Origin: a virus
Taxonomy: Duplodnaviria; Caudoviricetes
Reading direction: 5' to 3' (one strand)
DNA length: 64,000 nucleotides
IMG/VR virus record: IMGVR_UViG_3300030376_007323
Coordinates: 1 to 64,000 of that record
The notes under the pieces were generated by a model. The model was not told the DNA's origin, did not search any database, and saw nothing but the letters and a program-made list of their open reading frames with translations. Made by a program: the position numbers and the translations under genes. This document shows positions 6,229-29,607 of this stretch, in pieces (the stretch's first letter is position 1; the number at the start of each line of letters is the position of its first letter).

Positions 6229-6564
6229 ATGAATGTTATTTTAGATAATAAAGAGCTTCCATTAGAAATTATGTCCAACCCTACAGCTATCAGTACTGGG
6301 ATGATGGGGCGTGAAAAAATAGATGGTGGGATGTTATTTCTTTTTCCAGAAATCGGGGAACGTTCTTTCTGGATGAAAGATTGTTTAATATCTTTAGATA
6401 TAGTTTTTATCATTAATAATAAAGTTACTAAAGTACATAGAAATTGTACACCCTGTAATAAAACTAAATGTACCTCTTACTATGGAATTGCTAATAAAGT
6501 TTTGGAGGTTCCTGCTGGAAAATATTCTGTGAGTGAGGGAGATATATTAGAGTTTACTTACTAG
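6229..6564 (+). CDS. DUF192-family protein (start revised to ATG 6229)
   Basis: GMMGRE..GGMLFLF..SFWMKDCLISLDIVFI..VLEVPAG; ATATTTATA just upstream. Confidence 0.88.
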   Translation: MNVILDNKELPLEIMSNPTAISTGMMGREKIDGGMLFLFPEIGERSFWMKDCLISLDIVFIINNKVTKVHRNCTPCNKTKCTSYYGIANKVLEVPAGKYSVSEGDILEFTY

Positions 6565-7999
6565 AGTCTATATTTTCTTTAATTTTCTTGACCATTTCTT
6601 TCTGTACCCATTTTACAAATTCAACGTATCTTGTTGGTTTAGCGTCCGTTTTTTTCTTATAAGGTCCTTCTGGTTGTCTAGTTGCTCTACTGAAGAAATT
6701 TAACCCACTAATATTTGTTATACACTTATGACCCCCACTATTAGCTTGTATTACGTCCCACGCTGGTACAGTTATTTTATCTAAGACTGCTTTTTGTTTT
6801 TCACTTAATTTATCCCAAGGAGTGTCGATTATACTAACTGCCATATCATAATACTTTGAATTCTCTGAAGGCATATTTTGTAAATGGTCTTTGTATAACG
6901 CAAATAGGTCAGAAGTTTTAAATCCAATACTTTCTCCTTCTGCTTTAGTTTCACCAATTCTTTTAATTACGGAAACTGGTACTTGGTGTTTTTTAAGTTG
7001 TGGTTCCACTTCTTTTAATACTTCTTGAGCTATATCACCTAAATTAACACCTTTAAGAGCTCTATCTTTCTTGAACGGATTACATGAGGCTTGTACAAGA
7101 CCCATTGGCCATGCAACCACAAAAAAGTCAGCGTCAGGATAAATTTTAAATGGTGTGTACCTATCATAGGAACCTGGTTTAAATAACCTACCACCACCAT
7201 ATTGTACTATTATATTATCATCTAAATTTAGATTATTACTTTCTTGTTGGGACTTTATATATTGTGCTTGATTTTGTGCCATTTCTTCTGGTGAAGCAAA
7301 ACCTTTTTCTTTTGCGTAGGAAGTTATATTTTGATAGATATTCATTAATGATGGTGATGAATTCATAACTAAGTGTTCTAGGAATCCTGGTTTGTTTTTA
7401 TACGCTAATAATAATTTATTAGTTAATAGACCTAACATCCATCTTTTTTCGTAAGTTTGGTCACCTGATTCAAAATCTCTAATTAAGTTCATCACTTGTT
7501 CTGGTTCTATATCGTGTTTTGCGTAATCAGCTGAATCAACTGTATTAATCATCATAATATCTTCATCCGTAAAAATATCACTAGGACTTATAGTTTGTGA
7601 AATAGTTTCTACATTTGACCTTGCTCCTCTAAATTGTGTTGCTGTATCATCTTCTACACCTGCTTGTGAATCGTGGTGGTCAGTATGTATTTTAAATATT
7701 GGTTTGCCGTGTGCAAAATCTACTAGTACTGGCATTACATCTTCACTAGCTTGTGGTTTTTTTACTGAAAATTCTTTATCACCATATTGTATTACATGGG
7801 TGTCGATAACATCTATACCATATTTTTCTAAGTAGTTCTTCATACCTAATGCTGATACCACACCGTCTAAATCTTGATGAAAGTATATTTCTGCTTTTGG
7901 GTATCTTTGGGCTAGCTTATTGATGTCTCTAATTCCCCCTTCATTTAAGAGTGATTCATTAATAAACTCTAATTGTTTTTCTGTTATCTCGATTTTCAT
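6554..7999 (-). CDS. DHH/DHHA1-family phosphoesterase with N-terminal MKIEITEKQ leader (start revised to ATG 7999)
   Basis: HQDLDG, VLVDF, TDHH, C-terminal SGGHK. Confidence 0.8.
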   Translation of the reverse strand: MKIEITEKQLEFINESLLNEGGIRDINKLAQRYPKAEIYFHQDLDGVVSALGMKNYLEKYGIDVIDTHVIQYGDKEFSVKKPQASEDVMPVLVDFAHGKPIFKIHTDHHDSQAGVEDDTATQFRGARSNVETISQTISPSDIFTDEDIMMINTVDSADYAKHDIEPEQVMNLIRDFESGDQTYEKRWMLGLLTNKLLLAYKNKPGFLEHLVMNSSPSLMNIYQNITSYAKEKGFASPEEMAQNQAQYIKSQQESNNLNLDDNIIVQYGGGRLFKPGSYDRYTPFKIYPDADFFVVAWPMGLVQASCNPFKKDRALKGVNLGDIAQEVLKEVEPQLKKHQVPVSVIKRIGETKAEGESIGFKTSDLFALYKDHLQNMPSENSKYYDMAVSIIDTPWDKLSEKQKAVLDKITVPAWDVIQANSGGHKCITNISGLNFFSRATRQPEGPYKKKTDAKPTRYVEFVKWVQKEMVKKIKENIDSSK

Positions 8000-8024
8000 A
8001 TTATATAAATATCTACTTATTTGA

Positions 8025-8810
8025 TTAACACGGATGTCTTTTATCCCACCAAAATATGTGGTCACCTATTTTCTTAGCTGACTTTTTATTGTTGTTGTAA
8101 GATTTTGCAATAGTTCTTGTACTACCACTACTTAAATCTACTATACTAGGATTAACATAGTGATTTACCTTTATAAGGTCGTTATCACCAAAATCCTCAA
8201 CCACCCCTAACATTTTATCAAAACCTTTTACTTTTTGGTTGGTTATTCTGTTGTGTAACTCTTTAAATTTACCTTCCTTATCTAATCTATTAAAGTAATT
8301 CCAGGTAGAGTATTGTTTTCCTTTTAATACGGAATCTTTCATACTGTACCCACATTTGTCCGCTCGGTTTTTTATTGTAGATAATATAGCTTTTAATTCT
8401 TTTTCACCCGCTCTTTGATTCTCACCAACTAAAGTAGAGGCTAAAATATAATCTTCATCATCTTTAGGGATGTCCACATAAAGACCTAATTTTTTTAAAC
8501 CGTTAGGTCCTAGTGGGATGTTATTATTTGTTTGTTTACATAAATCAATATCTAAATGGGTTGACAAGGCTTTCAACATGTCTTTACCATAGTATCCGTC
8601 TCTACCTATACCTAGTTTTTTTTGAATTACGTATACTGGATGTGTTTTATCTAAATCGTAATCCCCATAGTTTATCAAACTTCCATTTCTTAGCATATCA
8701 TAGAAAGAAACGTCTACTTCGTTAAATTCTGTTTCTCCAGTAGGTACACACTTAACTTCCTCTTGTTCGAAAAGTCTAGTATATTGGTTTTCTGTGATTA
8801 TTATACGCAT
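8025..8810 (-). CDS. Cell wall hydrolase (SleB/Hydrolase_2-like) with PG-binding-like segment
   Basis: LASTLVGE, TIKNRA, VLKGKQYSTWN, HYVNP, KIGDHIF; IQKKLGIGRDGYYG. Confidence 0.8.
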   Translation of the reverse strand: MRIIITENQYTRLFEQEEVKCVPTGETEFNEVDVSFYDMLRNGSLINYGDYDLDKTHPVYVIQKKLGIGRDGYYGKDMLKALSTHLDIDLCKQTNNNIPLGPNGLKKLGLYVDIPKDDEDYILASTLVGENQRAGEKELKAILSTIKNRADKCGYSMKDSVLKGKQYSTWNYFNRLDKEGKFKELHNRITNQKVKGFDKMLGVVEDFGDNDLIKVNHYVNPSIVDLSSGSTRTIAKSYNNNKKSAKKIGDHIFWWDKRHPC

Positions 8811-8849
8811 AAAAAAGTCGTTTACAATAAATATACCTATAAACGACTT
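8811..8849 (-). terminator. Intrinsic terminator-like hairpin (10-bp stem, 15-nt loop, U-tract)
   Basis: aagtcgttta (8815-8824) pairs with taaacgactt (8840-8849); T6 run on minus strand immediately before ATG 8810. Confidence 0.7.
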
Positions 8850-8861
8850 ACTTACTCAAAG

Positions 8862-9251
8862 TTATAACTTTTCCCACTTACCATTATTTAATAATTTAAA
8901 TGTACCTACATAAGTTTCTTTCCACTGACTAGGTTCAATTAGGCTTAAGAATAAATCCTTATTTTTATTTTCATATAAATGATACGGTTCACCTAAGATG
9001 GGTTGGAAGTTATAAGTGGATTTATACACTAAACTTGTCCAATTATATTCCTCTACTAGTTTTTTATATTCGTCCCTTAACTCGTCTAGTCTAGACTTAA
9101 AATATTTGTCTGCTTTTATAGAATCTGATTTATCTACATTAATCGGCTCAAATTTTTGGGAGCCCACTGTGGTAGGATATTGTTTTAAGTTAGCGTCAAA
9201 TTTATCTGACTCTTCATTATAAACTATATTATCTGGATATTTCTTTTTCAT
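8862..9251 (-). CDS. DUF2452-family protein
   Basis: YPTTVGSQKF...FQPILGEPYHLY...LSLIEPSQW. Confidence 0.8.
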   Translation of the reverse strand: MKKKYPDNIVYNEESDKFDANLKQYPTTVGSQKFEPINVDKSDSIKADKYFKSRLDELRDEYKKLVEEYNWTSLVYKSTYNFQPILGEPYHLYENKNKDLFLSLIEPSQWKETYVGTFKLLNNGKWEKL

Positions 9252-9257
9252 TTTTCA

Positions 9258-10154
9258 TTACATACAACTAAAATATCTCTCCCCCCTATCACATAATATC
9301 GTTATAGCATCTGTTTTATCATTGTCTCTCAACCACTGAAATGAAGCGAATACATTAGCCGCAGCACTTATACCCACAAATAACCCATAATTTTTAGCTA
9401 AATGTCTAGCACATGCTTTAGCACATTCTGTGGATACAATTCTTACCTCAGAAACTTTTTCTAAATCAACCAAAAACTTACTACCATCACCTATCCCCTG
9501 GATGCCGTGTAGTCCTGATTCAAAACCTGACATCACGGCACTTTCCGCTGGTTCAATAGCTACAGTTTTAATTTTAGGCCACATTTCTTTTAAAAATTTA
9601 TCGGTACCCATTAATGTCCCACCAGTTCCCGTACCAGCTACAAATACTGATGGGTATGATTTTTCACCTTTAGTTTCTTTATACTGGTTGTAAAATTCAG
9701 GTCCTGTAGTTTGATAATGGGCTTGTATATTTAAAGGGTTATCAAACTGATTACAATTAAACCATTCGTTAACGTAACACAATTCATCTCTCATTCGTAT
9801 AGCTTCATCAAAATCACCTTCTGGTGCTTCTATTAATTCTGCACCATAATACTCAAACATTTTTTTTCTTTCCTCAGACATGTTAGATGGCATTATAATA
9901 ACCATTTTATACCCTCTTTCAGCTGCTAACATCGCAAATGCTATCCCACTATTTCCACTAGTAGCTTCACACATAGTATCACCCTTACTTAAAAGACCGT
10001 TTTCTTCCGCGTTATTAATTATAAATGTTGCCATCCTATCTTTTACAGACCCTGATGGGTTCATAAATTCTGCTTTACCCCATACTGTGTATCTACCAAT
10101 CCTTATGGGAATAAGTGGTGTGTTACCTACGTGTTGGGATAGTCTATCCTTCAT
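9258..10154 (-). CDS. cysK: Cysteine synthase (O-acetylserine sulfhydrylase, PLP-dependent)
   Basis: KAEFMNPSGSVKDR, EATSGNSG, GTGTGGT, HGIQGIG. Confidence 0.92.
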   Translation of the reverse strand: MKDRLSQHVGNTPLIPIRIGRYTVWGKAEFMNPSGSVKDRMATFIINNAEENGLLSKGDTMCEATSGNSGIAFAMLAAERGYKMVIIMPSNMSEERKKMFEYYGAELIEAPEGDFDEAIRMRDELCYVNEWFNCNQFDNPLNIQAHYQTTGPEFYNQYKETKGEKSYPSVFVAGTGTGGTLMGTDKFLKEMWPKIKTVAIEPAESAVMSGFESGLHGIQGIGDGSKFLVDLEKVSEVRIVSTECAKACARHLAKNYGLFVGISAAANVFASFQWLRDNDKTDAITILCDRGERYFSCM

Positions 10155-10582
10155 TAGTCTTCTATTTCTACGTTAAACTTATCTCCTTGTTGTATTTTTT
10201 CGATGATGTCTATCCCATCCACTACTCTACCAAAGCAAGTGTGATTGCCGTCTAGATGTTGTGTGGCTTGACGTGTGTGAACTAGAAAAAATTGTGACCC
10301 ACCAGTATTCCTTCCTGCATGTGCCATTGATAGGACTCCTCTATCGTGAAATTGTTTACCTCCTGTTAATTCACAGTCTATCTTATATCCTGGTCCCCCA
10401 GCACCAGTTCCATTAGGGCAACCTCCTTGAGCTACAAACCCTGGAATTACCCTATGAAAGTTTAGGTCTTTATAAAATCCTTCTTTTGCTAATTTAACAA
10501 AATTATTTACTGTATTTGGTGCGTCTTTTTCATAGAACTCTACCACCATAGTCCCTTTATCTGTATTAATCTTACCTTTCAT
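10154..10582 (-). CDS. Cyclophilin-type peptidyl-prolyl isomerase
   Basis: FHRVIPGFVAQGG, SMAHAG, GSQFF, HLDGNHTCFG. Confidence 0.95.
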   Translation of the reverse strand: MKGKINTDKGTMVVEFYEKDAPNTVNNFVKLAKEGFYKDLNFHRVIPGFVAQGGCPNGTGAGGPGYKIDCELTGGKQFHDRGVLSMAHAGRNTGGSQFFLVHTRQATQHLDGNHTCFGRVVDGIDIIEKIQQGDKFNVEIED

Positions 10583-10603
10583 TTTAATTATTTTATTTAT
10601 TTA

Positions 10604-11035
10604 TTACATATATTCATTTACTGCTTCGTATATCAATTCTTGTTCTTCCCCATCAAAGTTTTCCTCACCCTCTAGAAATGTAGCATCACCACCATGTTCA
10701 TCACTATACTCTTCTACGATAAATTTATGGTCACCATAAGACCCATACGCCTCAAATTTAAAAGCAAACCATGTTTCATAATTATTTTCAACATACACTT
10801 TATCATCACCAGCCTCCTCTAGTGTGTCAACATAAGTCATATCATCCAATTGTTCAAAAATTACATCTTTATCATCATCCGTAAAATTTTCTTTACCTTC
10901 CATGTAGACAAGTTCTCGTTCATCATTCATATCTTGCATACTCACTTTAAAATCTTTTCCTTTATACTTCCCTATGTAAGTATGTTTGCCCTCTTCATGG
11001 GTCTTTACTTTATCATTAATTACTACTTCTGCCAT
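10604..11035 (-). CDS. Acidic hypothetical protein with internal duplication
   Basis: YMEGKENFTDDDKDVIFE vs FLEGEENFDGEEQELIYE. Confidence 0.7.
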   Translation of the reverse strand: MAEVVINDKVKTHEEGKHTYIGKYKGKDFKVSMQDMNDERELVYMEGKENFTDDDKDVIFEQLDDMTYVDTLEEAGDDKVYVENNYETWFAFKFEAYGSYGDHKFIVEEYSDEHGGDATFLEGEENFDGEEQELIYEAVNEYM

Positions 11036-11037
11036 TT

Positions 11038-11391
11038 TTATTTTTTTTTTAATTTATTAATTTCCCTGCTTATATACCAACTTGCTTTTTCCAAGTCTTC
11101 TAATGTATTCATTTTTTTGCCTACTCTTGAGATATATTTTATCGTATTGCCCAGATTAAATCCTAGGTCCCACGCTTCGATTACTTTAATTGCCTCATAA
11201 GGGTTATCCTCACCACCATAGTGGTTTGGGTGATTAACCATTTCTTTTTTTGAGATGTTTTGTGTTCTATTAAAAGCGATTATTTGTTCAGTCGTTGGAA
11301 AATCCGGATTATTCCTCCCTGTCAATTCTTTATAGTGTGGATTTGGTTCTCCAGTGTTAGGGTCGTACGTAGGTATTTTTTTTGTAGACAT
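11038..11391 (-). CDS. DUF3310 (SaV-like) protein
   Basis: MVNHPNHY, EAIKVI, GFNLGNTIKYISR, EDLEKASWY. Confidence 0.9.
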   Translation of the reverse strand: MSTKKIPTYDPNTGEPNPHYKELTGRNNPDFPTTEQIIAFNRTQNISKKEMVNHPNHYGGEDNPYEAIKVIEAWDLGFNLGNTIKYISRVGKKMNTLEDLEKASWYISREINKLKKK

Positions 11392-11455
11392 TTATTTTAT
11401 TTTATTTATAAAATTTTAAATAAAATTAAAAGTATTGTCAATATAATTTTTTATT

Positions 11456-11785
11456 TTAATTAAGACAAAATGGGGGAAACCCATCTTTAATATTAACAAA
11501 TAATTTTTCTATTTGTTTTTCTTCCTGTATGAATTTGTTGATGTCCAACTCTTGGTGTATTTCTTTAAATGCTAGGTCAGTTACAATACCTAAAAGTTCT
11601 GTGGATGATAACATGGGGTCCCCATTTTTTTTAAAGTTAATGGTCGCCTTATCAGCGACCATTTTGTAAAATTCATCCATATCAATTTCAGTAATACCAA
11701 ACATATCTCTCCTAGCTTCTTCATCAGTGTCAAAGAAATCTTTAAGTCTTCGAACATATATTTGTATATCTACTTCCATATACAT
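11456..11785 (-). CDS. Hypothetical protein (likely start 11779)
   Basis: ORF; ATATTTAT motif overlaps the first ATG. Confidence 0.7.
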   Translation of the reverse strand: MYMEVDIQIYVRRLKDFFDTDEEARRDMFGITEIDMDEFYKMVADKATINFKKNGDPMLSSTELLGIVTDLAFKEIHQELDINKFIQEEKQIEKLFVNIKDGFPPFCLN

Positions 11786-11790
11786 AAATA

Positions 11791-12075
11791 TTACACCAAG
11801 TTATATTTCTTAATCAATCTCTTATCTATAGTTGTTGTTTTACCTTCCTTTTTTAAAATATTATATATTTTTTGTGCGGCTAATTTGATATCTTTCATCC
11901 CGTCTTCTACCTTGGTTTTGTTTTTATAAATCATAACTTCCACGTTACCTGGAGTTTTTACTATTTTACCACCAATTCTTTTTGAGGTTTCTCTTGTTAT
12001 TTTTTGTCTTACCTCATAGTTCACCATTTTACAGATATGATGACCTCTTTTTTCCATTGTTGTACTTCCACCCAT
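11791..12075 (-). CDS. Basic hypothetical protein
   Basis: ORF in operon. Confidence 0.7.
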   Translation of the reverse strand: MGGSTTMEKRGHHICKMVNYEVRQKITRETSKRIGGKIVKTPGNVEVMIYKNKTKVEDGMKDIKLAAQKIYNILKKEGKTTTIDKRLIKKYNLV

Positions 12076-12088
12076 TTTATTTTATTTT

Positions 12089-12337
12089 TTAAAAATTAAT
12101 ACTCATCCATCGTAAATTACCACTATGGGTAATTGTCTTATCAAACATACTAGATTGGTACACACTTTTTAGATTTTCTGCATCTTCTATTTTACCAAAT
12201 AGTTTTAGGTCACTATACCCAAAATTATTTTTTAGAAATAAATCTAGTTCTTTCCCCCTTAAGATAAGGTGAACGTGTCTAACAACCCAGTCTTGGAAGT
12301 CGTATGTGTCCCAGTTTGATTTTTCTCTTGTTTCCAT
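12089..12337 (-). CDS. Hypothetical protein
   Basis: ORF with TATATTTG (12342-12349) 4 nt upstream. Confidence 0.7.
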   Translation of the reverse strand: METREKSNWDTYDFQDWVVRHVHLILRGKELDLFLKNNFGYSDLKLFGKIEDAENLKSVYQSSMFDKTITHSGNLRWMSINF

Positions 12338-12373
12338 AGTACAAATATACGAATTTTTTATTATTATAGTATG

Positions 12374-12934
12374 TTATTTAGGAAAAACTTTTATCTCTTT
12401 TGTCGCACTTACTAATTCCCCCCATACACTCTCTTCTTTATATCTAGTTGCCCTAACTTTGTGATTATCAATATAGTGATATGCAGTAACGTCTTCATGA
12501 ATTCTTGGTTTACCGAAGATTATATGATGCCATCTTACTTCGTTATCTCTTAACCATTGTTCAGTAATTTCTCTATGTTCTTCTTTTCTAGATGTAAAAA
12601 ACGTAATTATATTTCCTTCTTCGTACCACTTATTAATTGTTTCTATTGCATTATGATGTGGTTTCGCGTCAGACATTCTATCAAACTGTTCATTAGGTAT
12701 ATCCTCACATAATGTACCATCTATATCCAAAACATAATTAGTTTTATTAACTTGTTTTCTAATTTGTCTGTAACCAACCATTTTTTTCTCCAAATACTCT
12801 TCAATATCATATGTATATTCCCCACATGAAGAATAAAGACATTTTTTCTGAATAACTGTTTTATTGTCTTCGGTTAGGTAAACTTCAGTTATACTATTTG
12901 CGTAATGTTGTGTGTAAATTAATATTTCTTCCAT
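12374..12934 (-). CDS. HAD-superfamily phosphatase with N-terminal extension
   Basis: VLDIDGTL, FFTSR, FGKP, YIDN. Confidence 0.85.
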   Translation of the reverse strand: MEEILIYTQHYANSITEVYLTEDNKTVIQKKCLYSSCGEYTYDIEEYLEKKMVGYRQIRKQVNKTNYVLDIDGTLCEDIPNEQFDRMSDAKPHHNAIETINKWYEEGNIITFFTSRKEEHREITEQWLRDNEVRWHHIIFGKPRIHEDVTAYHYIDNHKVRATRYKEESVWGELVSATKEIKVFPK

Positions 12935-12935
12935 T

Positions 12936-13130
12936 TTATTTCTTTTTATCTATTTTTTTAATTATTGTTTTTTCCATTGATATAATCACCTTTTCTAGTT
13001 TTAGTATTTGTCTTTCTAGGTGAATTATTTGTTCTCTTTTTTTTCTTCCTAGTTTTGCTTCCCAGATTAACCATCCAAAAGCTACCACTTCTAAAATGAA
13101 TAATGCTATTAATAATGTGGTTTGTGTCAT
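12936..13130 (-). CDS. Small TM + coiled-coil protein
   Basis: N-terminal hydrophobic helix. Confidence 0.65.
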   Translation of the reverse strand: MTQTTLLIALFILEVVAFGWLIWEAKLGRKKREQIIHLERQILKLEKVIISMEKTIIKKIDKKK

Positions 13131-13131
13131 A

Positions 13132-14307: not shown

Positions 14308-14391
14308 AGTATAATAATAAGATATTTTAATAGTGTTTTCAAGTTTTATTTACTTGTTAAATCTTAATATTTATTATTAAATAAAAAATTT

Positions 14392-17410: not shown

Positions 17411-17411
17411 C

Positions 17412-17615: not shown

Positions 17616-17631
17616 ATCTAATATTAATAAA

Positions 17632-18105: not shown

Positions 18106-18152
18106 ATCTTTTATATTATAAAGATAAGAAGTAAAAGTAGTATATAAAGGGA

Positions 18153-19082: not shown

Positions 19083-19106
19083 AATCTTTTTATTATAAAT
19101 ATCTAT

Positions 19107-19999: not shown

Positions 20000-20011
20000 T
20001 ACTTATAAATA

Positions 20012-20386: not shown

Positions 20387-20387
20387 T

Positions 20388-20741
20388 TTATCCACGTGAG
20401 AATTTAAAATCTTGTGGATTTGCTGACAAGTCCAAGAAGAGTTCTTCAAAGCCCCCTAGTAATGTATATGCTCTGTCATAGGGTCCTAAATTAATAGGGG
20501 TCATCCCGTCTTCCCATTTTAAAAGTACATCACATTTACCATCTGTTCTTTGTCTCATCTTTACATAGAATTGTGTTCCTTGTATCCTATTCTCCCTCAT
20601 AAACCAACCACTACTAGTCTCCTTATATCCATCAGGTCCGTCACAGTAACCCCCGCTACTCTCCTCTTTAATAACCTTAATGTTGTGTAGTCCTCTAATT
20701 CGGGTTTTCTCCGATTCGTTAATGTTAAATCTATTTTCCAT
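20388..20741 (-). CDS. Hypothetical protein with leader MENRFNINESEKTRIRGLH...IKE
   Basis: ORF. Confidence 0.65.
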   Translation of the reverse strand: MENRFNINESEKTRIRGLHNIKVIKEESSGGYCDGPDGYKETSSGWFMRENRIQGTQFYVKMRQRTDGKCDVLLKWEDGMTPINLGPYDRAYTLLGGFEELFLDLSANPQDFKFSRG

Positions 20742-20743
20742 AA

Positions 20744-21061: not shown

Positions 21062-21062
21062 A

Positions 21063-21596: not shown

Positions 21597-22156
21597 AGTA
21601 TTTCAAAATTAAATGAGGGGTTTAAATCTGTCCAATATTCATTATAGTTACTCCTACAAACGATACCTTTAAAATTTTCTACTCCGTCAACTAACACATT
21701 ATGTCCCAAGACATGGTTTGGTATTTTATTTTGTTTACAGATTTTATCTAATAACTCAATAGTAGATGATAATTGTATCTCTGTATAATTATCCCAGAAT
21801 AACTTACCTCTCCATTTTTTCTCATGGACTTTATTATTATAAATATTACCTAACCAGTCAATAAACTTACCATCTTCTTTTCTTCTTTTTAACCAACCTA
21901 TATTTTCTAAAGCTACCACTACCACCCCGGATGAAGAATATCCCGATAAATACTCTTGGGTTATATCCTCTTTATTAAGGTGGTGAATTTTACCGCTCTT
22001 TTCAATAAAGTAATTAGGTTTTCTTCTATTTTTACCATTATTTCTTAGTGATAGTCCTGTTAAAAAGTCTTTTGCTGGTCTTTGGCTATTACATAGTAAT
22101 ATTTGTTTACTTTCTTCCCTTGTATTTAAGTTTTGTTTTTTCATCTTTGTTCTCAT
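21593..22156 (-). CDS. N-acetylmuramoyl-L-alanine amidase-like (Amidase_2 fold), degenerate Zn ligands
   Basis: PNYFIEKSGKI, VALEN.GWL, YTEIQLSS..ELL, GIVCRSN, TDLNPSF. Confidence 0.7.
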   Translation of the reverse strand: MRTKMKKQNLNTREESKQILLCNSQRPAKDFLTGLSLRNNGKNRRKPNYFIEKSGKIHHLNKEDITQEYLSGYSSSGVVVVALENIGWLKRRKEDGKFIDWLGNIYNNKVHEKKWRGKLFWDNYTEIQLSSTIELLDKICKQNKIPNHVLGHNVLVDGVENFKGIVCRSNYNEYWTDLNPSFNFEIL

Positions 22157-23537
22157 CTACAGTTTTAGTTATCAATGTCTGAGTGGTATCTGTTAACCTT
22201 TCTAAAGGAACATTGTCATCATCATACTTAATATTAAGAACTTTAGATAATTTCTCAAGGTCTTTTTTGGTTGGGTTTATTGGTTCTACTTTTTCTGGTT
22301 CTTCGACCTTTCCTATTTCTTTACTTAATTCTATGATTTCTTTTTCTGTTAAATTATCAGTTGTTGTTACCACATTTTTTGGTGATGGTAACGGTGACAT
22401 TCCATTTTTTAAATCCTTAAATAACGGGGTTACTTTATCACCCACATTCTCATAATGTAGACCATCATTTCCATTTTGTCCTATAATGTTCATTCTATTT
22501 TCATCTATATCTAGATTATCTCTTGTATAATTAATATATGATTCTAGGTCTTGGAAGTATTCATCGGTTATTTTCTCTTGTTCTAACACATCTTCATCAT
22601 AGTTAAGTTTTTCCTTTTTATCTTGTCTAGCGAAAGCCTCTGACACCTCCTCCATAGTATATGGTGTGTCAAATTCTAAACCTTCTGGTTTCGACATTTT
22701 GACTTCTTTAGGGTCTATATTCTCTTCATCATCTCGTCTTTTTATTTGACCAAACGCAAAATTCGCTGCTACCACCAGTGCTATAGCAAGTGGGTCAAAA
22801 ACAAATATAATAAGTAATAAAAACCAATTTACTACCTGGTTCATAGGTTTTCCTGTCACTTCTGCTAGATATTTTAATGGTCCTAATTCACTCTCTGCTT
22901 CATTAGATGTTTCTTTATTTAATAATGCAATATCTGTTTTATTAATTGAGTCTAACACTGCTTCAATTTTTATATTAACAGCATCTCTATCTGCAATTGT
23001 ATTTTTTAATTCAGTCTGGAGTGCTCTTCGTGTAGAACTAGATGTTGTTGTAATTACTTGTTCAGCTTCTTTATCATAATATGATACTGAGCCAGGATTT
23101 GATAACGACACCCTTAATTCAGATATTGATTTATTAAGTTGTGTTTTTTCAATATTCAAATCGTCTTTCGTCTCTTGGAATCTTATATTTTTTTGATTTA
23201 GTATTACTAATGATTTATCTAGTAATTCAGATTGGTTGGCAGTTGATTGATATGCTCCTGATAGAAATCCGTATATACCCCCACTAGTAATAACCATTAA
23301 TACTAATGTTGCTATTGCTAGGTAAGTCCTTAATACTTTATTAATGGTATCCCAGTATTGATACAGTAGTGATGCAACAACGAGTTTTGCAAATTCTAGG
23401 GACCCCGCCATTATAATTACTTGTAAACTTGCACCCGCAAATAATTTACTTAACCCAAACACAGAATAGAAAGCAGCACTCCCAGAAACTGCGAGTGCTG
23501 ATAAAGCTATTAATAGTGGAAATAATCTTTTTTTCAT
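22107..23537 (-). CDS. Multi-TM coiled-coil membrane protein
   Basis: SAAFYSVFGL, SLEFAKLV, ITSGGIYGFLS, ELGPLKYL, IIFVFDPLAI. Confidence 0.75.
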   Translation of the reverse strand: MKKRLFPLLIALSALAVSGSAAFYSVFGLSKLFAGASLQVIIMAGSLEFAKLVVASLLYQYWDTINKVLRTYLAIATLVLMVITSGGIYGFLSGAYQSTANQSELLDKSLVILNQKNIRFQETKDDLNIEKTQLNKSISELRVSLSNPGSVSYYDKEAEQVITTTSSSTRRALQTELKNTIADRDAVNIKIEAVLDSINKTDIALLNKETSNEAESELGPLKYLAEVTGKPMNQVVNWFLLLIIFVFDPLAIALVVAANFAFGQIKRRDDEENIDPKEVKMSKPEGLEFDTPYTMEEVSEAFARQDKKEKLNYDEDVLEQEKITDEYFQDLESYINYTRDNLDIDENRMNIIGQNGNDGLHYENVGDKVTPLFKDLKNGMSPLPSPKNVVTTTDNLTEKEIIELSKEIGKVEEPEKVEPINPTKKDLEKLSKVLNIKYDDDNVPLERLTDTTQTLITKTVDENKDEKTKLKYKGRK

Positions 23538-23558
23538 TTATCCTTTTATTGATAAATA

Positions 23559-24356
23559 TTAATCCGTTAGGTATTCTAACAACTGGTAGCTATCATTTCT
23601 TAACTTTCGTAGAGCTTTTTCTTTTATCTGTCTAACTCTTTCCTTCGTTAACCCTAGTCCATCACCTATTTCTTGTAAAGTCATGGGTGTTTCTAGTAAC
23701 CCATAGTAATCTTTTATAATATTCTTTTCTCTTTCATCTAATCCGGACATTAATTTAAATAACTCTGTTTTAAGATTAAATTCATCTTTAAAAATATCTT
23801 CTGGGTTTTCTGCGTCTCTATTTTCAATCAAGTCAATTAATGTATCACCCTCTTCATTTATAGGTCTATCATAATTAATAGTAGATGGTAGTAACGCTAG
23901 TTTTGTATTTATATTCTCAATTTCATTACTCACTTTTTTCTTTTCTCTTTGTATTTCTTGGATTATATTTACCGGTAGACGAATAGTTCGAGCATTTTCA
24001 TTTAAACATTGTAAGATAGATTGTCTAACCCACCATACAGCGTAAGAGATAAATCTGAACCCTTTATTCCAGTCAAAGTTATTTATCGCTTTTAGTAAGC
24101 CTAGGTTACCTTCTGCTATTAAGTCACTTAACTCAATACCTTGATTTTGGTAGTCTTTAGCAACACTTATAACGAATCTAAGGTTACCCTCCAATAGTTC
24201 TAGATGTATTTTTTCTCTTTCTGTCTGGGTTGTTTTTGGGTTAAGCATTTTTTTAGCTAGTTCTTTTTCCCTATCTGGTGTTAGTACTTTTCTCTTCCTA
24301 ACATCTTTTAAGTAATAAGAAATTTCTGATTGATTTATGAATGTGTTTTTTGCCAT
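23559..24356 (-). CDS. RNA polymerase sigma-70 factor, RpoD/SigA family (Bacteroidota type, no region 1.1)
   Basis: NLRFVISVAK, DLIAEGNLGL, RFISYAVWWVRQSI, RTIRLP, TLQEIG..GLTKERVRQI. Confidence 0.95.
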   Translation of the reverse strand: MAKNTFINQSEISYYLKDVRKRKVLTPDREKELAKKMLNPKTTQTEREKIHLELLEGNLRFVISVAKDYQNQGIELSDLIAEGNLGLLKAINNFDWNKGFRFISYAVWWVRQSILQCLNENARTIRLPVNIIQEIQREKKKVSNEIENINTKLALLPSTINYDRPINEEGDTLIDLIENRDAENPEDIFKDEFNLKTELFKLMSGLDEREKNIIKDYYGLLETPMTLQEIGDGLGLTKERVRQIKEKALRKLRNDSYQLLEYLTD

Positions 24357-24382
24357 TTATTTATTGTTTTATATATTAATAC

Positions 24383-24425
24383 TACAATTAGTGTACCATA
24401 CTATAATAACTGACTTTTTGTCAGT
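24383..24425 (-). promoter_or_regulatory. Sigma54-like -24/-12 element (TGGTAC-N5-TTGT) with adjacent inverted repeat ACTGAC-N5-GTCAGT
   Basis: GG-N10-GT at 24383-24398; palindrome at 24409-24425. Confidence 0.5.
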
Positions 24426-24442
24426 ATATTATATTTAGAACA

Positions 24443-24474
24443 CAAAATTAATAAATAAATTTGAATTACCCAAA
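24443..24474 (-). promoter_or_regulatory. Bacteroidota sigmaA-type promoter TTTG-N20-TAATTTTG upstream of the sigma gene
   Basis: Exact consensus match in an intergenic region. Confidence 0.75.
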
Positions 24475-24484
24475 TAATTTATAG

Positions 24485-24835
24485 TTAAATTAAATAAGGT
24501 TTTAAGACATTTAGTGTGTCTTCTGGGCCATCCATTGCTTGACCTAAGGGTGCTTCTGTTTTATCTTTGACAGTTGGTATGTGTGTTGTTTCACCTTTAT
24601 CGTCTTCTATAATTAGAACTGGAGTATACCACGATAGATGATGTTCTCTTTCTGCATCGATATAGTCCCATCTAGTATTACCGTTTTGTTTTTTTTGTTC
24701 TTCTGTAGATACTGATATACATCTATCCATGAATGGTATATTCTTTTCTTTTAATATTTTTTTTGTTTCTAGACAATCTTCACACGAATCTTCAGTAAAG
24801 ATAGATAATTTATACTTTTTAGTGTCTAATTTCAT
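24485..24835 (-). CDS. Glutaredoxin/thioredoxin-fold protein
   Basis: IFTEDSCEDC..TKKIL; YTPVLII cis-Pro motif. Confidence 0.75.
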   Translation of the reverse strand: MKLDTKKYKLSIFTEDSCEDCLETKKILKEKNIPFMDRCISVSTEEQKKQNGNTRWDYIDAEREHHLSWYTPVLIIEDDKGETTHIPTVKDKTEAPLGQAMDGPEDTLNVLKPYLI

Positions 24836-24843
24836 CTTTTAAG

Positions 24844-25401
24844 TTATTTTTTATAGTTATTTAAAAATTCTAATTCTTCTTTGGTTAGGCTTTCTAGTCC
24901 CTCATCTATTATCTTATCCAATAAAATATCAATATTTAAAGGTCTTAGATTTTTTATAATTTTATTAATTCTTACTGGTTTGTCAAGGTCTGTTATAAGA
25001 TTTTTAAATTTACTATCTATTATATGTTTTAATTGTTCGGATAATACCTTTGCTACTTCAGGACTTATTTGTTTAGTATTTTTTTGTATGTTCCTCCCAA
25101 AAAGATGTTCTTTTAATTTATCATCTAACCTAAAGCCTAACTTTCTAGGTTTTGGCATTAAGAAATAAGTACTCACCTCCTCTACTAAAAATTCTTTCAG
25201 GATATCATCTATCTCCTCAAAACTCATTCTAGATTTTACTTGCATAATTATAACCCTATCACCAGTGACAAAACTAAACTCGTGATGACTTACTATAGTA
25301 TCCATCACATCTTTTATGTTCATCATTATTTTAGAATTTTTTTCAACGGTCCCCCATTGTCCAAACATAAATAAAAGGTATTTTTTAACTCTATCCTGCA
25401 T
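24844..25401 (-). CDS. Hypothetical protein with C-terminal DUF6576-like motif
   Basis: IDILLDKIIDEGLESLTKEELEFL. Confidence 0.65.
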   Translation of the reverse strand: MQDRVKKYLLFMFGQWGTVEKNSKIMMNIKDVMDTIVSHHEFSFVTGDRVIIMQVKSRMSFEEIDDILKEFLVEEVSTYFLMPKPRKLGFRLDDKLKEHLFGRNIQKNTKQISPEVAKVLSEQLKHIIDSKFKNLITDLDKPVRINKIIKNLRPLNIDILLDKIIDEGLESLTKEELEFLNNYKK

Positions 25402-25413
25402 ATCTATAAATAT

Positions 25414-27741
25414 TTAATTTAGCTTAGAAATATTCTTTTCTTTATTAATTGTTATGGTATTATCCGCCCACTCCCTCACTAAAGGATTGTGGGTTATTAA
25501 AAATACATTTTCAAAGTACTCTTTAACCCTACTAAAAAATATACCTACTTGTTCTAAATTTTCATTACTTACTTTACCTAAAACTTCATCAAATACTGTT
25601 ACGTTGGGTCGGGGTAGACAAGATACTTTGGTTAATACAGTTCTAATAGCTAAAGAGGCTAGCGTTTTCTCAAACCCACTACCACTAGATACTAATTTTT
25701 CAATATCTGTATTATTATCTACCATCCAGAACTCTACTTCGTTTTTATCATTAACTCTTATTTCCACCATAAAATTAGTAACATCTGATAATAACCTCAT
25801 TAATTCATTATTAAGTTTTGGGACCACACTTTTCACAATAGTTTTAATTATACCATTTTTACCATATACAGTCAGGTAAGCTCTGAAAATTTTATCTACG
25901 TCACTTTCCTTATTAATTTTACCAATTTTAGTTTCTCTATCCTTTATATTACTTTCACCATTTTTTATGGTATTTTTATTATATTCTATTTCTCTAACTA
26001 AAGTATCTTTAGTATTATTTAATATATCTAAAGTAGAATTTAAAGTTAGTAATTTTTTGTCTATTTTAGTGTTGTTTTCTAATTTTTCTTTGTTATCCAC
26101 CCACTTTTCTAATTTTCTATTTAACTCTTTTATATCTAGATTTTTCTTATCTACCTCTAACATCAACCTTTCTTTCTTGAGTATTTCTTTTTCGTATTCA
26201 TCAAAAATAGTCTTTTTTGTTGTTAGACTCTCCACCTCATTTTGTAAATTTTGTAATATTTTATCTTCACTTTCTATAGTAGTTATTAAAACTTTTATCT
26301 CTTTTTCTAAGTTTTTTATTTCGTTAGTGTGGTCTACATCTTTAAGTGTTTGTTTACATGTAGGACATATTTCTGACTCTACTAAATTTTTTAAACTATT
26401 TTTTTTATTTTTTAAGTTAGTGTTATGTTTTATTTTTGTATGTAGAGTTTTATCTCTTTCTTTAATCTTTTCACCTAAACTTTCTAAATTAATTTCTTCT
26501 GGTATTTCTTTATCCCCGTACGCTTTCAATTTAACCCTTAAAGATTCTAATATTAAACCTTCTTCATCTATTTTTTCTTCTACTAGTCTTGGGTTAACGT
26601 TCACTATTTCGGTGTCTATGTCTATTATTTTTTGACTTATTAAATTATCTCTTTCTTCATTATTACTTTTTATTGTATTTAATGTTTTCTGGAGATTTTT
26701 TTCATTCTCTTTATTAGTTAGATTTAATTCTTCTTTTTCTTTATTTATATTTTTAATCTCTTGTTTTAAATCTTCAATGTTATAGACATTAGATATTAAT
26801 TTTTTTGACCAGTCCGAATACATTTTTTTACATGTTACTTCCTTATCCTTTAGTATCTCTAACCCTATAAATCTACTTAATACATTCCCCCTTTCAGTAG
26901 GTTTGGACTCTATTAGTGATTCTAGGTTACCTGCTGTGGATAATACAGTGAGTAAAAAGTCATTCATTGTACCTATGGACTCTTTTATAAATTTTTCTGT
27001 TTCTCTTCGTTGTTCCCCTGTAAAGTTTTGTACCGAACCGTCTTTTTTTCTTTCTAGAAATTCTAGACTTGTGCTAACAGACCACTCACCTCTTTTAGTT
27101 TTTCTTCTTTTTATTTTACGTAATATAATATAATCACTACCATCTATTTCAACTTCTCCTTGTACAAAAACTTCATTAACTTTCCTAAATCTATTAAAAA
27201 TATCTATAGCCTTACTTGTTTTAGTAGTAGTATTAAAAAATAAAAAGAGTATTAGGTCTACAGCTAGTACGGATTTCCCACCGAAGTTAGGGGGGTTAGA
27301 ATCAATCACAGTTATCCCACCTAAATCTTTAAAATCTAAAGTATTGTTATCTCCGAATGATAAAAAATTAGAAAATTTTATATTTTTAATATACACTCTT
27401 TTGTATTTAGTGTCTACATCAGCTTCTTCACTAATTTTAATATTAACCTTATCATCCAATCTTTTTAAAAGGTCTATATCTATTTTCATATCATTAGCCA
27501 TAACAAATTGTGACATCAAACTTCTTTGGTAATTAGTGTCCATTACATTTTGTTCTAAATCTATATCTAACTCATCTCCGGATGTTTTATCAATAGCTTT
27601 AGTAAGTACGGTTACGTTCTTAGATTTATACTTATTTTGAAAGTAGCTTCTTACTCTCTTAATCTTTTCTTGGGTAAAGTTTTCTGGTATGTCTTCCCAT
27701 GTTACTTTAATAAAAGGATTCTCTAATGTGTCTATATTCAT
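25414..27741 (-). CDS. SbcC/Rad50/gp46-like recombination ATPase
   Basis: KFSNFLSFG, Walker A NFGGKS, CPTC zinc hook, SGSGFE signature, VFDE Walker B, ITH. Confidence 0.92.
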   Translation of the reverse strand: MNIDTLENPFIKVTWEDIPENFTQEKIKRVRSYFQNKYKSKNVTVLTKAIDKTSGDELDIDLEQNVMDTNYQRSLMSQFVMANDMKIDIDLLKRLDDKVNIKISEEADVDTKYKRVYIKNIKFSNFLSFGDNNTLDFKDLGGITVIDSNPPNFGGKSVLAVDLILFLFFNTTTKTSKAIDIFNRFRKVNEVFVQGEVEIDGSDYIILRKIKRRKTKRGEWSVSTSLEFLERKKDGSVQNFTGEQRRETEKFIKESIGTMNDFLLTVLSTAGNLESLIESKPTERGNVLSRFIGLEILKDKEVTCKKMYSDWSKKLISNVYNIEDLKQEIKNINKEKEELNLTNKENEKNLQKTLNTIKSNNEERDNLISQKIIDIDTEIVNVNPRLVEEKIDEEGLILESLRVKLKAYGDKEIPEEINLESLGEKIKERDKTLHTKIKHNTNLKNKKNSLKNLVESEICPTCKQTLKDVDHTNEIKNLEKEIKVLITTIESEDKILQNLQNEVESLTTKKTIFDEYEKEILKKERLMLEVDKKNLDIKELNRKLEKWVDNKEKLENNTKIDKKLLTLNSTLDILNNTKDTLVREIEYNKNTIKNGESNIKDRETKIGKINKESDVDKIFRAYLTVYGKNGIIKTIVKSVVPKLNNELMRLLSDVTNFMVEIRVNDKNEVEFWMVDNNTDIEKLVSSGSGFEKTLASLAIRTVLTKVSCLPRPNVTVFDEVLGKVSNENLEQVGIFFSRVKEYFENVFLITHNPLVREWADNTITINKEKNISKLN

Positions 27742-27772
27742 GTTTTAAATATAACACAATAAAGTATATTAA

Positions 27773-28798
27773 TCAATTATAGAAGTAGTCTCTAAAAACT
27801 TTTCCTTTATATTTTTCTAATTTAGAATATATTTCACCTCTTTTATCTAGTTGGATATCCTTAATTAATAAATCCATCTCTTCTTTGGTTTTGGGGGACA
27901 TCTCAAAAGCTAAATTTTTTGGTATGGAAGCTTTGTTGAATAGTTTAACTACGTTTATTTTATTACTCCAATATTCTAATGCCTGTATGTACCCTAAATT
28001 TAGTCCTATGTTTTTTGTGGTTTTTATCTTAGTAGACTTGTTCAATGTCATTATTAGTGATTTTAGTGTAAAGGGGATTTTAAGTTGGGAAATGCTAATA
28101 TTTATTTTTTCTTGAGGATAATTTTTAAACTCTTCTTTGTTTTTCATAAGTGAGAAGTCCATTTTAATTTTATCGTATTCTTTTGTTGTGATATTACTAT
28201 CGTATTTGGTTTGGAGTAATCGTGTTGACATCCCGTTAAAATGAAGGTATTCTATGGGTATTTCTTTTATATTTTTATTATGTTTTTTTAATATTTTTTG
28301 TGATAGTTCTAAATTTTCAAACCCCCAATAGTACTTTTCATCATAACCACCTATTTCTATAAACTTTTTTCTTTCCATTACTAATGGAACTTCTTTTAAA
28401 TAATAAAATCTCTTATCTTTACTAAAGTAATGCATTTCACTACCTGTAGCATAAACATCATCATCAAGAGGTTGGGTCATTAATCCAACCCAATTTTTTT
28501 CTATAATTTCACAATCATCATGAAATATAGCTATGTACTTATGAATAGATTGTTTTACACCATTATTAAGTGCTTTTGGTAAATGGTATGGTGTGGATTT
28601 GATAACACTTATGTTGGTGTGTTCTGATGATTCCCATTTCTTTTCAATGTCTTTATCACCACTGTTATCAACAATAATAATTTCAATATTCCAATCTTTT
28701 AGGTGTTTAGTTGTTTTGATGATACTTGGTAATGTTCTTTTTTTAACAAAAAAATCACAAAATGTGTTTATAATGATACATGATAGAGTTTTATCCAT
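27773..28798 (-). CDS. Glycosyltransferase family 2
   Basis: IIIVDNS, ALNNG, FHDD, GGYDE, GFEN. Confidence 0.85.
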   Translation of the reverse strand: MDKTLSCIIINTFCDFFVKKRTLPSIIKTTKHLKDWNIEIIIVDNSGDKDIEKKWESSEHTNISVIKSTPYHLPKALNNGVKQSIHKYIAIFHDDCEIIEKNWVGLMTQPLDDDVYATGSEMHYFSKDKRFYYLKEVPLVMERKKFIEIGGYDEKYYWGFENLELSQKILKKHNKNIKEIPIEYLHFNGMSTRLLQTKYDSNITTKEYDKIKMDFSLMKNKEEFKNYPQEKINISISQLKIPFTLKSLIMTLNKSTKIKTTKNIGLNLGYIQALEYWSNKINVVKLFNKASIPKNLAFEMSPKTKEEMDLLIKDIQLDKRGEIYSKLEKYKGKVFRDYFYN

Positions 28799-28839
28799 AT
28801 GTTAAATATGTGATATTTATTACTATAAATCAATTAGTA

Positions 28840-29607
28840 ATGAAAATTCAAATAACAGAATCTCAGTATAGGGCCATTGTTGAACAAAGTAATAGATGGT
28901 TGGACATCATTAAAAGTGAGGTGTTTGATATACAGAATTATATTAAGGATATAAACTGGGATGTTATGGATACCGCTGTATTAAATGGTATTAGTAGAGA
29001 AGATATGACGTTACTAATAATGGCTTATAAAAAGTTTAAGGGTGGTGTGGGTAATGGTGCACCAAACATAAATCCTTTACTAACACAAGATGGGGATAAA
29101 ATTGGCACTGTAAATGGTAGTAATTGGTATAAGTGTGGCAGGTTTGGTAATCCTCAACGTCAACATAATGGGGTAGATTTAGATACTCAGGATATAGCAA
29201 AAAATCAACCCGCGGTTGCTGCTTGTAATGGTACAATTACAGCAAGTGAGTATGGTGTTGGGAATTGTGGTGGGATGATTAAATTAAAGTGTAAAAATGG
29301 TTACACAGCTCAATATTGTCATATGGATTTTGTGTTCCCAGCAGAAATTATAGTGGGACAACAAGTACCTCAAGGTTTCCCTATTGGTGTGACTGGGGGT
29401 GACAATCCTAATCATGATAAAGAAGGTGGTAGTAGTGGAGCTCACTTACATTACGCAATATTTAAAGATGGGTATTCTTGGAATCCTTATTATTTACCTT
29501 TTACCAAATCTTTAGAGTTTGCTCAAGGTAGTGGTGACGAACCTATAAAAATGAAATTGTGTAGGTGTTCTAAAAGTAAACCTGAGTGTTGTTGTAAGAA
29601 AAAATAA
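28840..29607 (+). CDS. M23-family peptidase with MKIQITESQ leader (start revised to 28840)
   Basis: HNGVD (HxxxD), YCHM, SSGAHLHY. Confidence 0.88.
   Translation: MKIQITESQYRAIVEQSNRWLDIIKSEVFDIQNYIKDINWDVMDTAVLNGISREDMTLLIMAYKKFKGGVGNGAPNINPLLTQDGDKIGTVNGSNWYKCGRFGNPQRQHNGVDLDTQDIAKNQPAVAACNGTITASEYGVGNCGGMIKLKCKNGYTAQYCHMDFVFPAEIIVGQQVPQGFPIGVTGGDNPNHDKEGGSSGAHLHYAIFKDGYSWNPYYLPFTKSLEFAQGSGDEPIKMKLCRCSKSKPECCCKKK

Follow-up and report, generated by a model that had tools for sequence, protein, structure and literature searches.

Three unrelated enzyme genes in the window, which is the whole 64-kb stretch of viral DNA that was analysed, were found to begin with the same N-terminal pattern, M[KR]IxITExQ[YL]..[LI].E. 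The DNA stems from a T4-like jumbo phage of an uncultured marine lineage. Comparative analysis showed that this class-1 tag (consensus MKIIITESQYKKLLEE) is N-terminal, virus-specific, selected at the protein level, portable, swappable and carried by phages whose head and protease are of the T4 type; no published description of it was found in the literature. By analogy with the capsid-targeting sequence (CTS) of T4, the tag may serve for head targeting and cleavage, with its cargo loaded for injection, and the probability of this reading was judged to be slightly above even. Core binding, encapsidation, cleavage and ejection are what we infer from that analogy.

Tagged genes in the window and their products

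The gene of a DHH/DHHA1-type phosphoesterase (481 aa; 6554..7999, minus strand), assigned from translation, homologues and an AF2 model, carries the tag MKIEITEKQLEFINESLLNE in its first 15 codons (7955..7999, minus strand), with ITE at residues 5–7, INE at 13–15 and LNE at 18–20. On the same strand, the gene of a CwlJ/SleB-like cell-wall hydrolase (261 aa; 8025..8810), assigned from translation and alignment to PF07486 proteins, carries MRIIITENQYTRLFE (15 codons, 8766..8810; ITE at 5–7, LFE at 13–15). The third gene lies on the plus strand and encodes an M23 peptidase with a Cys-rich C-terminal tail (255 aa; 28840..29607; Pfam PF01551), headed by MKIQITESQYRAIVE (15 codons, 28840..28884; ITE at 5–7, IVE at 13–15). 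Both protease-type sites, ITE and a second [LI]xE, were present in all three proteins. The translations read exactly as the earlier note had stated in claiming a near-identical leader on the DHH, SleB-like and M23 proteins. The promoter-like motif ATATTTAT, which it had placed upstream of all three genes, was located at 5, 16 and 19 nt 5' of ATG 7999 (8005..8012, minus strand), ATG 8810 (8827..8834, minus strand) and ATG 28840 (28813..28820, plus strand), respectively.

The ORF tables give longer versions of two of these genes, starting at GTG 8065 and ATG 28780. Homologues begin at the tag, which makes 7999 and 28840 the probable starts. A six-frame search of the 94-kb contig with the expression M[KR][ILVF].[ILVF][TSN][EDQ] gave exactly three sites, which were the three tagged starts. 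Scanning the phage's own genome with a profile of the tag, as had been suggested earlier, yielded one further tagged gene, outside the window, at contig position 93902 on the minus strand (MSTNIIITEKQLKK).

The M23 identity of the 28840 product is considered firm from its match to PF01551 (E 1e-14; 54.8 bits against a Pfam cut-off of 28.7), and its homologue P0006 begins MEMKIRITESQ. The DHH product matched Pfam below the cut-off (E 0.0015; 19.2 against 28.1), and its translation contains the motifs DxD (HQDLDG) and DHH (HTDHHDS). Its homologues retained the tag immediately N-terminal to (S/G)GIRDI. A Foldseek search with the AF2 model of this product (pLDDT 62) returned, at E ≤ 1e-3, DHH/DHHA1 enzymes including PggH, RecJ, NrnA and GdpP, together with uncharacterised or replication-protein entries, at TM values of 0.3–0.4. 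In the case of the 8810 product, no direct Pfam match was obtained, PF07486 included. It aligned over its full length, at 27–30% identity, with 14 tag-bearing PF07486 proteins, and judging from this alignment, the SleB-like label probably holds through these homologues; a weak match to the endolysin phrog_938 was also recorded. The AF2 model of this product (pLDDT 50) was too poor for use. Because the tag region itself reached a pLDDT of only 38–50, the AF2 models give the tag no structural support.

Distribution, selection and interchange of the tag

In IMG/VR, at least 145 tag matches were found, and among the matches listed, 140 (97%) lay at an ORF start, with a stop codon no more than 25 codons upstream. 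The matches listed comprised 125 unique tagged proteins, which fell into at least 65 unrelated cargo clusters. Some of these proteins matched the Pfam families lysozyme, LysM, Hydrolase_2, DHH, Pterin_4a and M78, while approximately 100 of the 125 (about 80%) were without a Pfam match. The tagged Pterin_4a dehydratase and an HD-domain protein look more like cytoplasmic metabolism, and a tagged lysozyme with LysM could be an endolysin; both observations count against injection. Among 1.84 billion representatives searched, 156 clusters matched at E ≤ 1e-3, almost always from residue 1. In GTDB genomes, the pattern had 119 matches, of which just 3 were true tags; position 13 was L/I in 17% of the 119, as opposed to 90% in viral contigs. 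The bacterial-genome matches thus look like chance, and the tag appears to be virus-specific.

Within the tag codons, every synonymous codon was in use, and Ser8 was encoded by both TCN and AGY. Because synonymous codons vary, the peptide is regarded as the target of selection. Moreover, conservation tracked amino-acid properties, with L/I at position 13 and Y/F/L at position 10. The tag opens with a few beta-prone residues (MKIII), continues with an invariant I-T-E and closes with an amphipathic helix (S-Q-Y/F-k-k-L-h-E); such a helix alone also yields [LI]xxE-type spacing. A Sec, Tat or lipoprotein signal was rejected, as only 4–5 hydrophobic residues (IIII) are present before T-E-S-Q and charged residues, and an h-region needs about 10–15.

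Looser leaders had also been suggested at 917, 20741 and 21596. The one at 20741 proved to belong to a second widespread tag class; the N-terminus at 917 was kept only in its orthologue, and neither 917 nor 21596 gained support. The gene starting at 20741 (20388..20741, minus strand) encodes a 117-aa protein with the class-3 tag MENRFNINESEKTRIRGLHNIKVIKEE, which resembles N-termini of the 281-kb relative G002 (MGKFIITESEKNNIRLQYGIIKE) and IMG/VR matches. This class, M.K[FL]IITE[ES]EK..I, had 52 N-terminal matches in IMG/VR. CwlJ-like cargo was found with either the class-1 or the class-3 tag, and a DHH homologue of 635–642-kb phages bears those phages' own N-terminal tag, M..KY..FI.E. With a given cargo family carrying differing lineage-specific tags, the tag classes are interchangeable and the tags appear to be modular. 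The earlier proposal of a portable tag on diverse enzymes was therefore strongly supported, as the peptide is virus-only, N-terminal, conserved at the protein level and attached to unrelated clusters, with tags interchangeable on cargo.

Proposed head loading and alternative explanations

The cleavage site of T4 Alt is ITE-6 (PMC5694885), and the ITE at residues 5–7 is the same tripeptide in all pattern matches, an invariance that is partly circular because the search pattern fixed ITE; matches to the tag profile mostly kept T-E. A second site, [LI]xE ending at residues 13–18, was found in 70 of 122 tags (57%), the other 43% being without it, compared with 2–10 of approximately 115 in interior windows and 31 of 264 at other N-termini, for control frequencies of 5–12%. 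The MCP propeptide contained five [LI]xE sites in 60 residues, of which IKE-44 aligns with the maturation point of T4 gp23.

The contig of the window was collinear with G002; of its 90 genes, 48 had a match there, with a median identity of 41%. This relative has at least 18 tagged genes and a head module of TerL, Portal_T4, S77, a scaffold-like protein and Gp23. Peptidase_S77 was encoded in both near-complete tagged genomes (G001 and G002), and Gp23 in three of five further partial contigs. The window's own 94-kb contig carries gp32, UvsX-like, gp41-like and baseplate genes and no head genes. The tag was found in no cultured phage; Flavobacterium phage immuto, the closest cultured relative as judged from the MCP, contains IITESQ just once, at an internal position.

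The motif TATTTAT was found 5' of the prohead protease gene, of one head gene and of baseplate genes. It was over-represented at tagged genes (10/18 versus 62/297; p=0.002), although many of them are without it. A gp41-like helicase gene also has it upstream, and the motif therefore cannot be counted as a signal for late or head genes alone. The analysis gave no support to a leader of the RiPP or radical-SAM type with a linked maturase; the commonest non-tagged neighbour family occurred in 15 of 120 tagged loci.

Capsid loading followed by gp21-type removal after (I/L)-x-E, as put forward in the earlier note, fits every computational test that was run: relatives possess an S77 head module, the tag contains a protease motif with site enrichment at residues 15–16, the promoter is shared with head genes, and no modifying enzyme is linked. 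By analogy with T4, the tag would bind, late in infection, to the scaffolding core of a prohead under assembly, and any tag-bearing protein would be enclosed in the head. The S77, gp21-like prohead protease would cut after Glu at I-T-E(7) and/or [LI]-x-E(15/16), freeing the mature cargo, which would leave the head together with the DNA when the next cell is infected. Among the cargo of the window, the two peptidoglycan hydrolases could serve in wall passage, and the DHH phosphoesterase might degrade (oligo)nucleotides or nucleotide signals.

Any docking role would suit a portable, conserved N-terminal peptide, and the invariance of Q9 and L13 has no cleavage-linked reason. The tag could accordingly be an uncleaved docking or assembly peptide for a target other than the head interior, which might be a membrane site, an oligomerisation partner or a different part of the virion. 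This was considered fairly unlikely, as the cargo consists of enzymes and very small soluble proteins (57–200 aa) rather than fibres or adhesins, no tail or baseplate Pfam family was present among the 125 listed tagged proteins, and the protease-type sites in the tag, together with the T4-type head context, indicate the head. Any Glu-specific processing would likewise be compatible with a conserved leader that contains a Glu-specific site, in which case the tag would be recognised by a cytoplasmic processing, modifying or degrading enzyme (as a RiPP-like leader, chaperone signal or degron) without packaging. However, no non-tagged neighbour family recurred in more than 15 of 120 loci, and the only matching specificity found encoded in tagged genomes was that of the S77 prohead protease; T4 gp21 works inside proheads (PMC9026906). 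Such recognition was thus considered unlikely.

The conservation could also arise as a gene-start effect, either from a 5' coding element that aids translation of near-leaderless late mRNAs or from a promoter-plus-leader cassette that is spread by recombination and shuffles genes. Because TATTTAT ends only 4–19 nt 5' of the ATG, some mRNAs would indeed be nearly leaderless. Moreover, codons in the tags are shifted towards A-ending ones (AAA.92 vs.81, GAA.90 vs.72 and ATA.54–.60 vs.36), and tandem arrays of tagged genes are frequent. However, this effect was judged quite unlikely given the free use of synonymous codons, the two codon sets at Ser8, the conservation by amino-acid property and the many tagged genes at which the promoter motif is missing; a cassette mechanism might account for how the tag spread, but it leaves the purifying selection acting on the peptide unexplained. 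Finally, just three to four copies in 94 kb might suggest that the three N-termini are alike through chance or recent within-genome duplication. This was rejected as exceedingly improbable, since the peptide heads hundreds of unrelated proteins on other viral contigs, a reversed control pattern gave 0 matches in four genomes, and the cargo portions are mutually unrelated and fall into separate clusters.

Significance and comparison with known systems

If the tag does load the head, a simple sequence rule would list the injected proteins of uncultured ocean phages directly from metagenomes, and the three-protein CTS device of T4 would have expanded to at least 5% of genes in jumbo relatives. 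Since injected proteins act before any phage gene expression, they would be prime anti-defence candidates. Phages infecting marine Bacteroidota-type hosts could also be made to package foreign proteins by means of the tag. A broader reading, to which somewhat less than an even chance was given, is that this marine T4-like jumbo lineage possesses a sequence-predictable "injectome", in which dozens of proteins per genome, from hundreds of families or more, would be directed to the head by a small set of interchangeable (I/L)-T-E tags and co-injected. In such an injectome, the tags would join an Alt-type cleavage site to an IP-type CTS helix, and the first-minute arsenal would comprise wall hydrolases, a DHH enzyme that degrades nucleotide signals and many small candidate anti-defence proteins.

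Encapsulin cargo-loading peptides show that a short terminal peptide suffices to send diverse enzymes into an HK97-fold shell. Unlike the tag, they are usually C-terminal and uncleaved, and they belong to a bacterial compartment from which nothing is ejected. In phiKZ-like giant phages, many proteins are packaged and ejected, among them SPN3US gp53/gp54 and phiKZ gp93, and paralogous head proteins share an identical 15-residue N-terminus containing an AXE/SXE site (PMC5694885). However, phiKZ-like propeptides depend on an S80 protease and an A/S-x-E motif, are mostly longer than 100 residues and are common to paralogues only. T4 Alt is likewise an ejected enzyme, and I-T-E closes its very short N-terminal propeptide (PMC5694885), but this propeptide has 6 residues and is not known on other proteins, whereas the I-T-E of the tag precedes a further conserved helix.

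The T-even internal proteins are diverse defence proteins, and the CTS is their only common feature (PMC3012670, PMC9026906); in T4, it reads MKTYQEFIAE (PMC8442874). Like the tag, the CTS is a short N-terminal peptide on otherwise unrelated, fast-evolving proteins and ends in hydrophobic-x-Glu (PMC3012670, PMC9026906, PMC8442874), and tagged relatives likewise encode a gp21-type (S77) protease, a scaffold-like protein and gp23. The class-1 tag differs in being longer (15–16 aa), with an additional invariant MKIIITE.Q head, and in being known here from sequence alone. Moreover, it occurs on at least 18 genes of a single genome (281 kb) and overall on at least 65 cargo clusters, compared with three IPs in T4, and several tag classes coexist in tagged phages. 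No significant sequence similarity of the class-1 tag to MKTYQEFIAE was found; the resemblance is one of pattern, as the second half of the tag reads aromatic-x-x-hydrophobic-hydrophobic-(x)-E (Y/F-x-x-h-h-(x)-E). The T4 CTS is resembled far more closely by M..KY..FI.E, the tag of the 640-kb phages.

Tagged genes of the window

Three genes of the window were found to begin with a shared MKIIITE-type peptide, the class-1 tag: those of a DHH phosphoesterase (ATG 7999, minus strand; MKIEITEKQLEFINESLLNEGGIRD, 481 aa), a CwlJ/SleB-like hydrolase (ATG 8810, minus strand; MRIIITENQYTRLFEQEE, 261 aa), and an M23 peptidase (ATG 28840, plus strand; MKIQITESQYRAIVEQSN, 255 aa). One ATATTTAT motif lies ahead of each, at 8005-8012(-), 8827-8834(-), and 28813-28820(+), respectively. 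The ORF table gave upstream-extended starts for the DHH (GTG 8065) and M23 (ATG 28780) genes. As homologues begin at the tag with in-frame stops a few codons upstream, and ATATTTAT lies within the 28780 extension, translation probably begins at 7999 and 28840.

Judged by sequence, the cargo parts behind the tag are unrelated. The M23 cargo matched PF01551 (E 1e-14). The DHH/DHHA1 cargo scored under the Pfam cut-off and contained the DxD and DHH motifs, and its AF2 model matched PggH, RecJ, NrnA, and GdpP. The CwlJ/SleB-like cargo, without a direct Pfam match, shared 27-30% identity over its full length with PF07486 proteins. Accordingly, the earlier note's observations that three unrelated enzymes share an N-terminal peptide and that ATATTTAT precedes all three agreed with the translations, domains, and motif positions. 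In the DHH model (pLDDT 62), the tag was a low-confidence, detached helix (residues 7-20); therefore, the model gives no structural conclusion on the tag. The model of the CwlJ-like protein (pLDDT 49.7) was too poor for use. A PHROGs search with the window's large proteins gave almost no matches, and a word-index homologue search with M23 residues 1-40 returned two candidates only. The M23 protein ends in a Cys-rich basic tail (CRCSKSKPECCCKKK; 29560-29604, plus strand), which is kept in its homologue P0006.

The tagged genes are adjoined by auxiliary genes (5016-6059, 9258-10582, 23559-24356, and 27773-28798) for a glutamine-synthetase-like protein, a PLP-dependent enzyme, a cyclophilin, a sigma-70-family factor, and a GT2 glycosyltransferase, and an SbcC gene is also among these surroundings. 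Regions 1.2, 2, and 4 of the sigma factor were matched, with region 3 matched below the cut-off only. The internal protein genes of T4 also sit outside the head module.

Spread and conservation of the tag

A loose regular expression for the tag found exactly three sites in six frames of the 94-kb contig containing the window, namely these genes. As the earlier note had proposed, the genome and its relatives were scanned with a tag profile for the range of cargo. A fourth tagged gene was located outside the window, at contig 93902(-) (MSTNIIITEKQLKK), and at least 18 of the 315 genes of G002, a 281-kb, 96% complete IMG/VR relative, were tagged. At least 270 matches were obtained from 5.8 billion clusters. 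When 1.84 billion representatives were searched exhaustively, 156 reached E<=1e-3, nearly all of them aligned from residue 1, and this figure is limited by the statistical power of the search. The top representative matches P0150, P0152, P0154, and P0186 were rejected as false positives caused by unrelated internal tandem repeats; in P0154 and P0186, a tail-fibre-like repeat of ~31 residues (WDK.TGI.ITESQI.DLQ.YL) mimics the tag in profile searches. In the 272-aa public protein P0153, the tag occurs at residue 1 and again at 111, and this protein is probably a fusion of two neighbouring tagged genes.

Scanning IMG/VR with the back-translated pattern M-K-I-x-I-T-E-x-Q gave at least 120 loci, many of which hold 2-4 tag matches within a few kb. 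Among the IMG/VR matches listed, an in-frame stop lay within 25 codons upstream in 140 of 145, and positions left free in the pattern were still conserved (L/I at 13 in 90%, I/L/V at 4 in 88%, and Y/F/L at 10 in 72%). The class-1 consensus was MKIIITESQYKKLLEE. When the same pattern was run against bacterial and archaeal genomes (596 Gb), position 13 was L/I in 17%, and only 3 matches, each on a small MAG contig, resembled true tags. The cellular matches thus appear to behave as chance, and the tag is, on this comparison, virus-specific. The reversed pattern gave 0 matches in four tagged genomes. Chance or recent duplication was ruled out by this control, the contig search, and the cellular-genome comparison. 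A secretion signal was also ruled out because the tag has no hydrophobic core.

Conservation of the tag could also reflect a gene-start element or a recombination cassette, and the tag does show a modest excess of A-ending codons, which is common at gene starts. However, every synonymous codon is used, with Ser8 encoded by both TCN and AGY, which speaks against the gene-start reading; therefore, selection acts mainly on the peptide. A full-text literature search with the tag peptide strings found no paper describing the tag.

Cargo diversity and tag classes

The 125 unique tagged proteins among the matches listed formed at least 65 clusters with no detectable similarity past residue 18, which upholds the earlier proposal of a portable tag carried by diverse enzymes. 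About one-fifth of these 125 had a Pfam match, namely, Phage_lysozyme (10), LysM (7), Phage_L5_gp82 (7), Pterin_4a (2), and single cases including Hydrolase_2, DHH, M78, and DUF5661.

Two further classes are represented among the tagged genes of G002: class 2 (MK[KR][IV]I[RK]LTESDL.RIV.RVIKE) and class 3 (M.K[FL]IITE[ES]EK..I). Of the 122 IMG/VR matches to the class-3 pattern, at least 52 lay at an N-terminus. Three looser leaders had been listed in the earlier note; the one at 20741 proved to be a third-class tag, whereas those at 917 and 21596 had no tag-profile match. The CwlJ-like cargo (..PCPEGK.ED..) was found with either a class-1 or a class-3 tag. In the 635-642-kb uncultured phages LR745206.1 and LR756502.1, the DHH homologue lacks MKIIITE and begins with M(I/L)(S/R)KY.QFINEE. 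K-Y-x-x-F-I-x-E occurred 12 and 7 times in these genomes, respectively (0 and 1 in the controls), and 14 of the 19 sites lay 3-5 residues from an N-terminal Met. This tag is close to the T4 capsid targeting sequence (CTS) pattern Y-x-x-F-I-x-E. That orthologous cargo carries each lineage's local tag argues, at the sequence level, for a tag that serves machinery of the phage itself. In the same two phages (loci L266-L284), an N-terminal M..[KR]KY..FI.E is present on at least 14 genes, the DHH homologue included. At 134026-135077 of G002 (L131), a tag-like mini-ORF (...QNIVITEAQLEKLLEKLKK, stop) immediately precedes an ORF orthologous to the contig tagged gene 93045-93902; a decayed tag, a split gene, or an error in sequencing could each account for it.

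Relation to T4 head targeting

In T4, a CTS of 10-19 residues on internal proteins binds the prohead core, and gp21 cuts after (L/I)-x-E (PMC3012670, PMC9026906, PMC5694885; CTS sequence, PMC8442874); six residues are removed from Alt at ITE-6 (PMC5694885). The internal proteins of T-even phages are varied defence proteins with only the CTS in common (PMC3012670, PMC9026906). Residues 5-7 of the tag are I-T-E, the tripeptide of the Alt cleavage site; I-T-E was fixed by the search pattern, and profile matches in G002 mostly retain it. Among the matches listed, a second [LI]-x-E ended at residues 13-18 in 70 of 122 tags, with peaks at 15 (n=41) and 16 (n=20), compared with 2-10 of ~115 in interior windows and 31/264 in other N-termini. 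In the DHH family, the tag stops directly before the conserved (S/G)GIRDI at the beginning of the domain.

The window contig carries genes for gp32, UvsX-like RecA, gp41-like helicase, Baseplate_J, T4_baseplate, and RNR, and no head genes were found on its 94 kb. It is collinear with 134-228 kb of G002 (48 of 90 genes matched, median identity 41%), which has a T4-type head module of TerL, an intein-containing Portal_T4, Peptidase_S77, a 495-aa acidic protein resembling a scaffold, and Gp23. The 925-aa portal gene (64957-67734; L128:4957-7734) contains an intein splicing domain and an HNH endonuclease. S77, the gp21-like prohead protease family, was also found in another near-complete genome with tagged genes (295 kb), and Gp23 in 3 of 5 additional partial tagged contigs. 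In the G002 major capsid protein, five [LI]xE sites fall within residues 1-60, compared with three over the 540 that follow, and its IKE-44 aligns with the maturation point of T4 gp23; this distribution and alignment suggest that the prohead protease has plausibly retained the T4-type specificity.

The best explanation, to which we give a little better than an even chance, is that the tag is CTS-like: it would target cargo to the phage head and would be cleaved there by the prohead protease. Alternatively, the tag could be a docking peptide for a destination elsewhere than the head, or a recognition sequence for another enzyme. The commonest non-tagged gene family beside tagged genes occurred at no more than 15 of 120 loci among those listed, and none was recurrent, which argues against a linked maturase.

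TATTTAT lies upstream of 72 of the 315 G002 genes, among them those of the prohead protease and several baseplate/tail proteins and the one that follows the portal gene; a helicase gene is preceded by it as well. The motif is enriched ahead of tagged genes, preceding 10/18 of them versus 62/297 others (p=0.002). DNA near-identical to the window occurs in marine metagenomes from several studies, and no RNA datasets were listed among the sequencing runs with this DNA. The nearest cultured capsids (43-44%) are those of Microcystis phage Mel-JY01 and Flavobacterium phage immuto. Immuto gp083 (NC_055915.1, 111675-112139; L145:2676-3140), the sole IITE.Q match in that genome, begins with MKKQILSEQFRRMQKLAGIITESQFNEEL, which from its sequence resembles a tandem pair of tag-like units.
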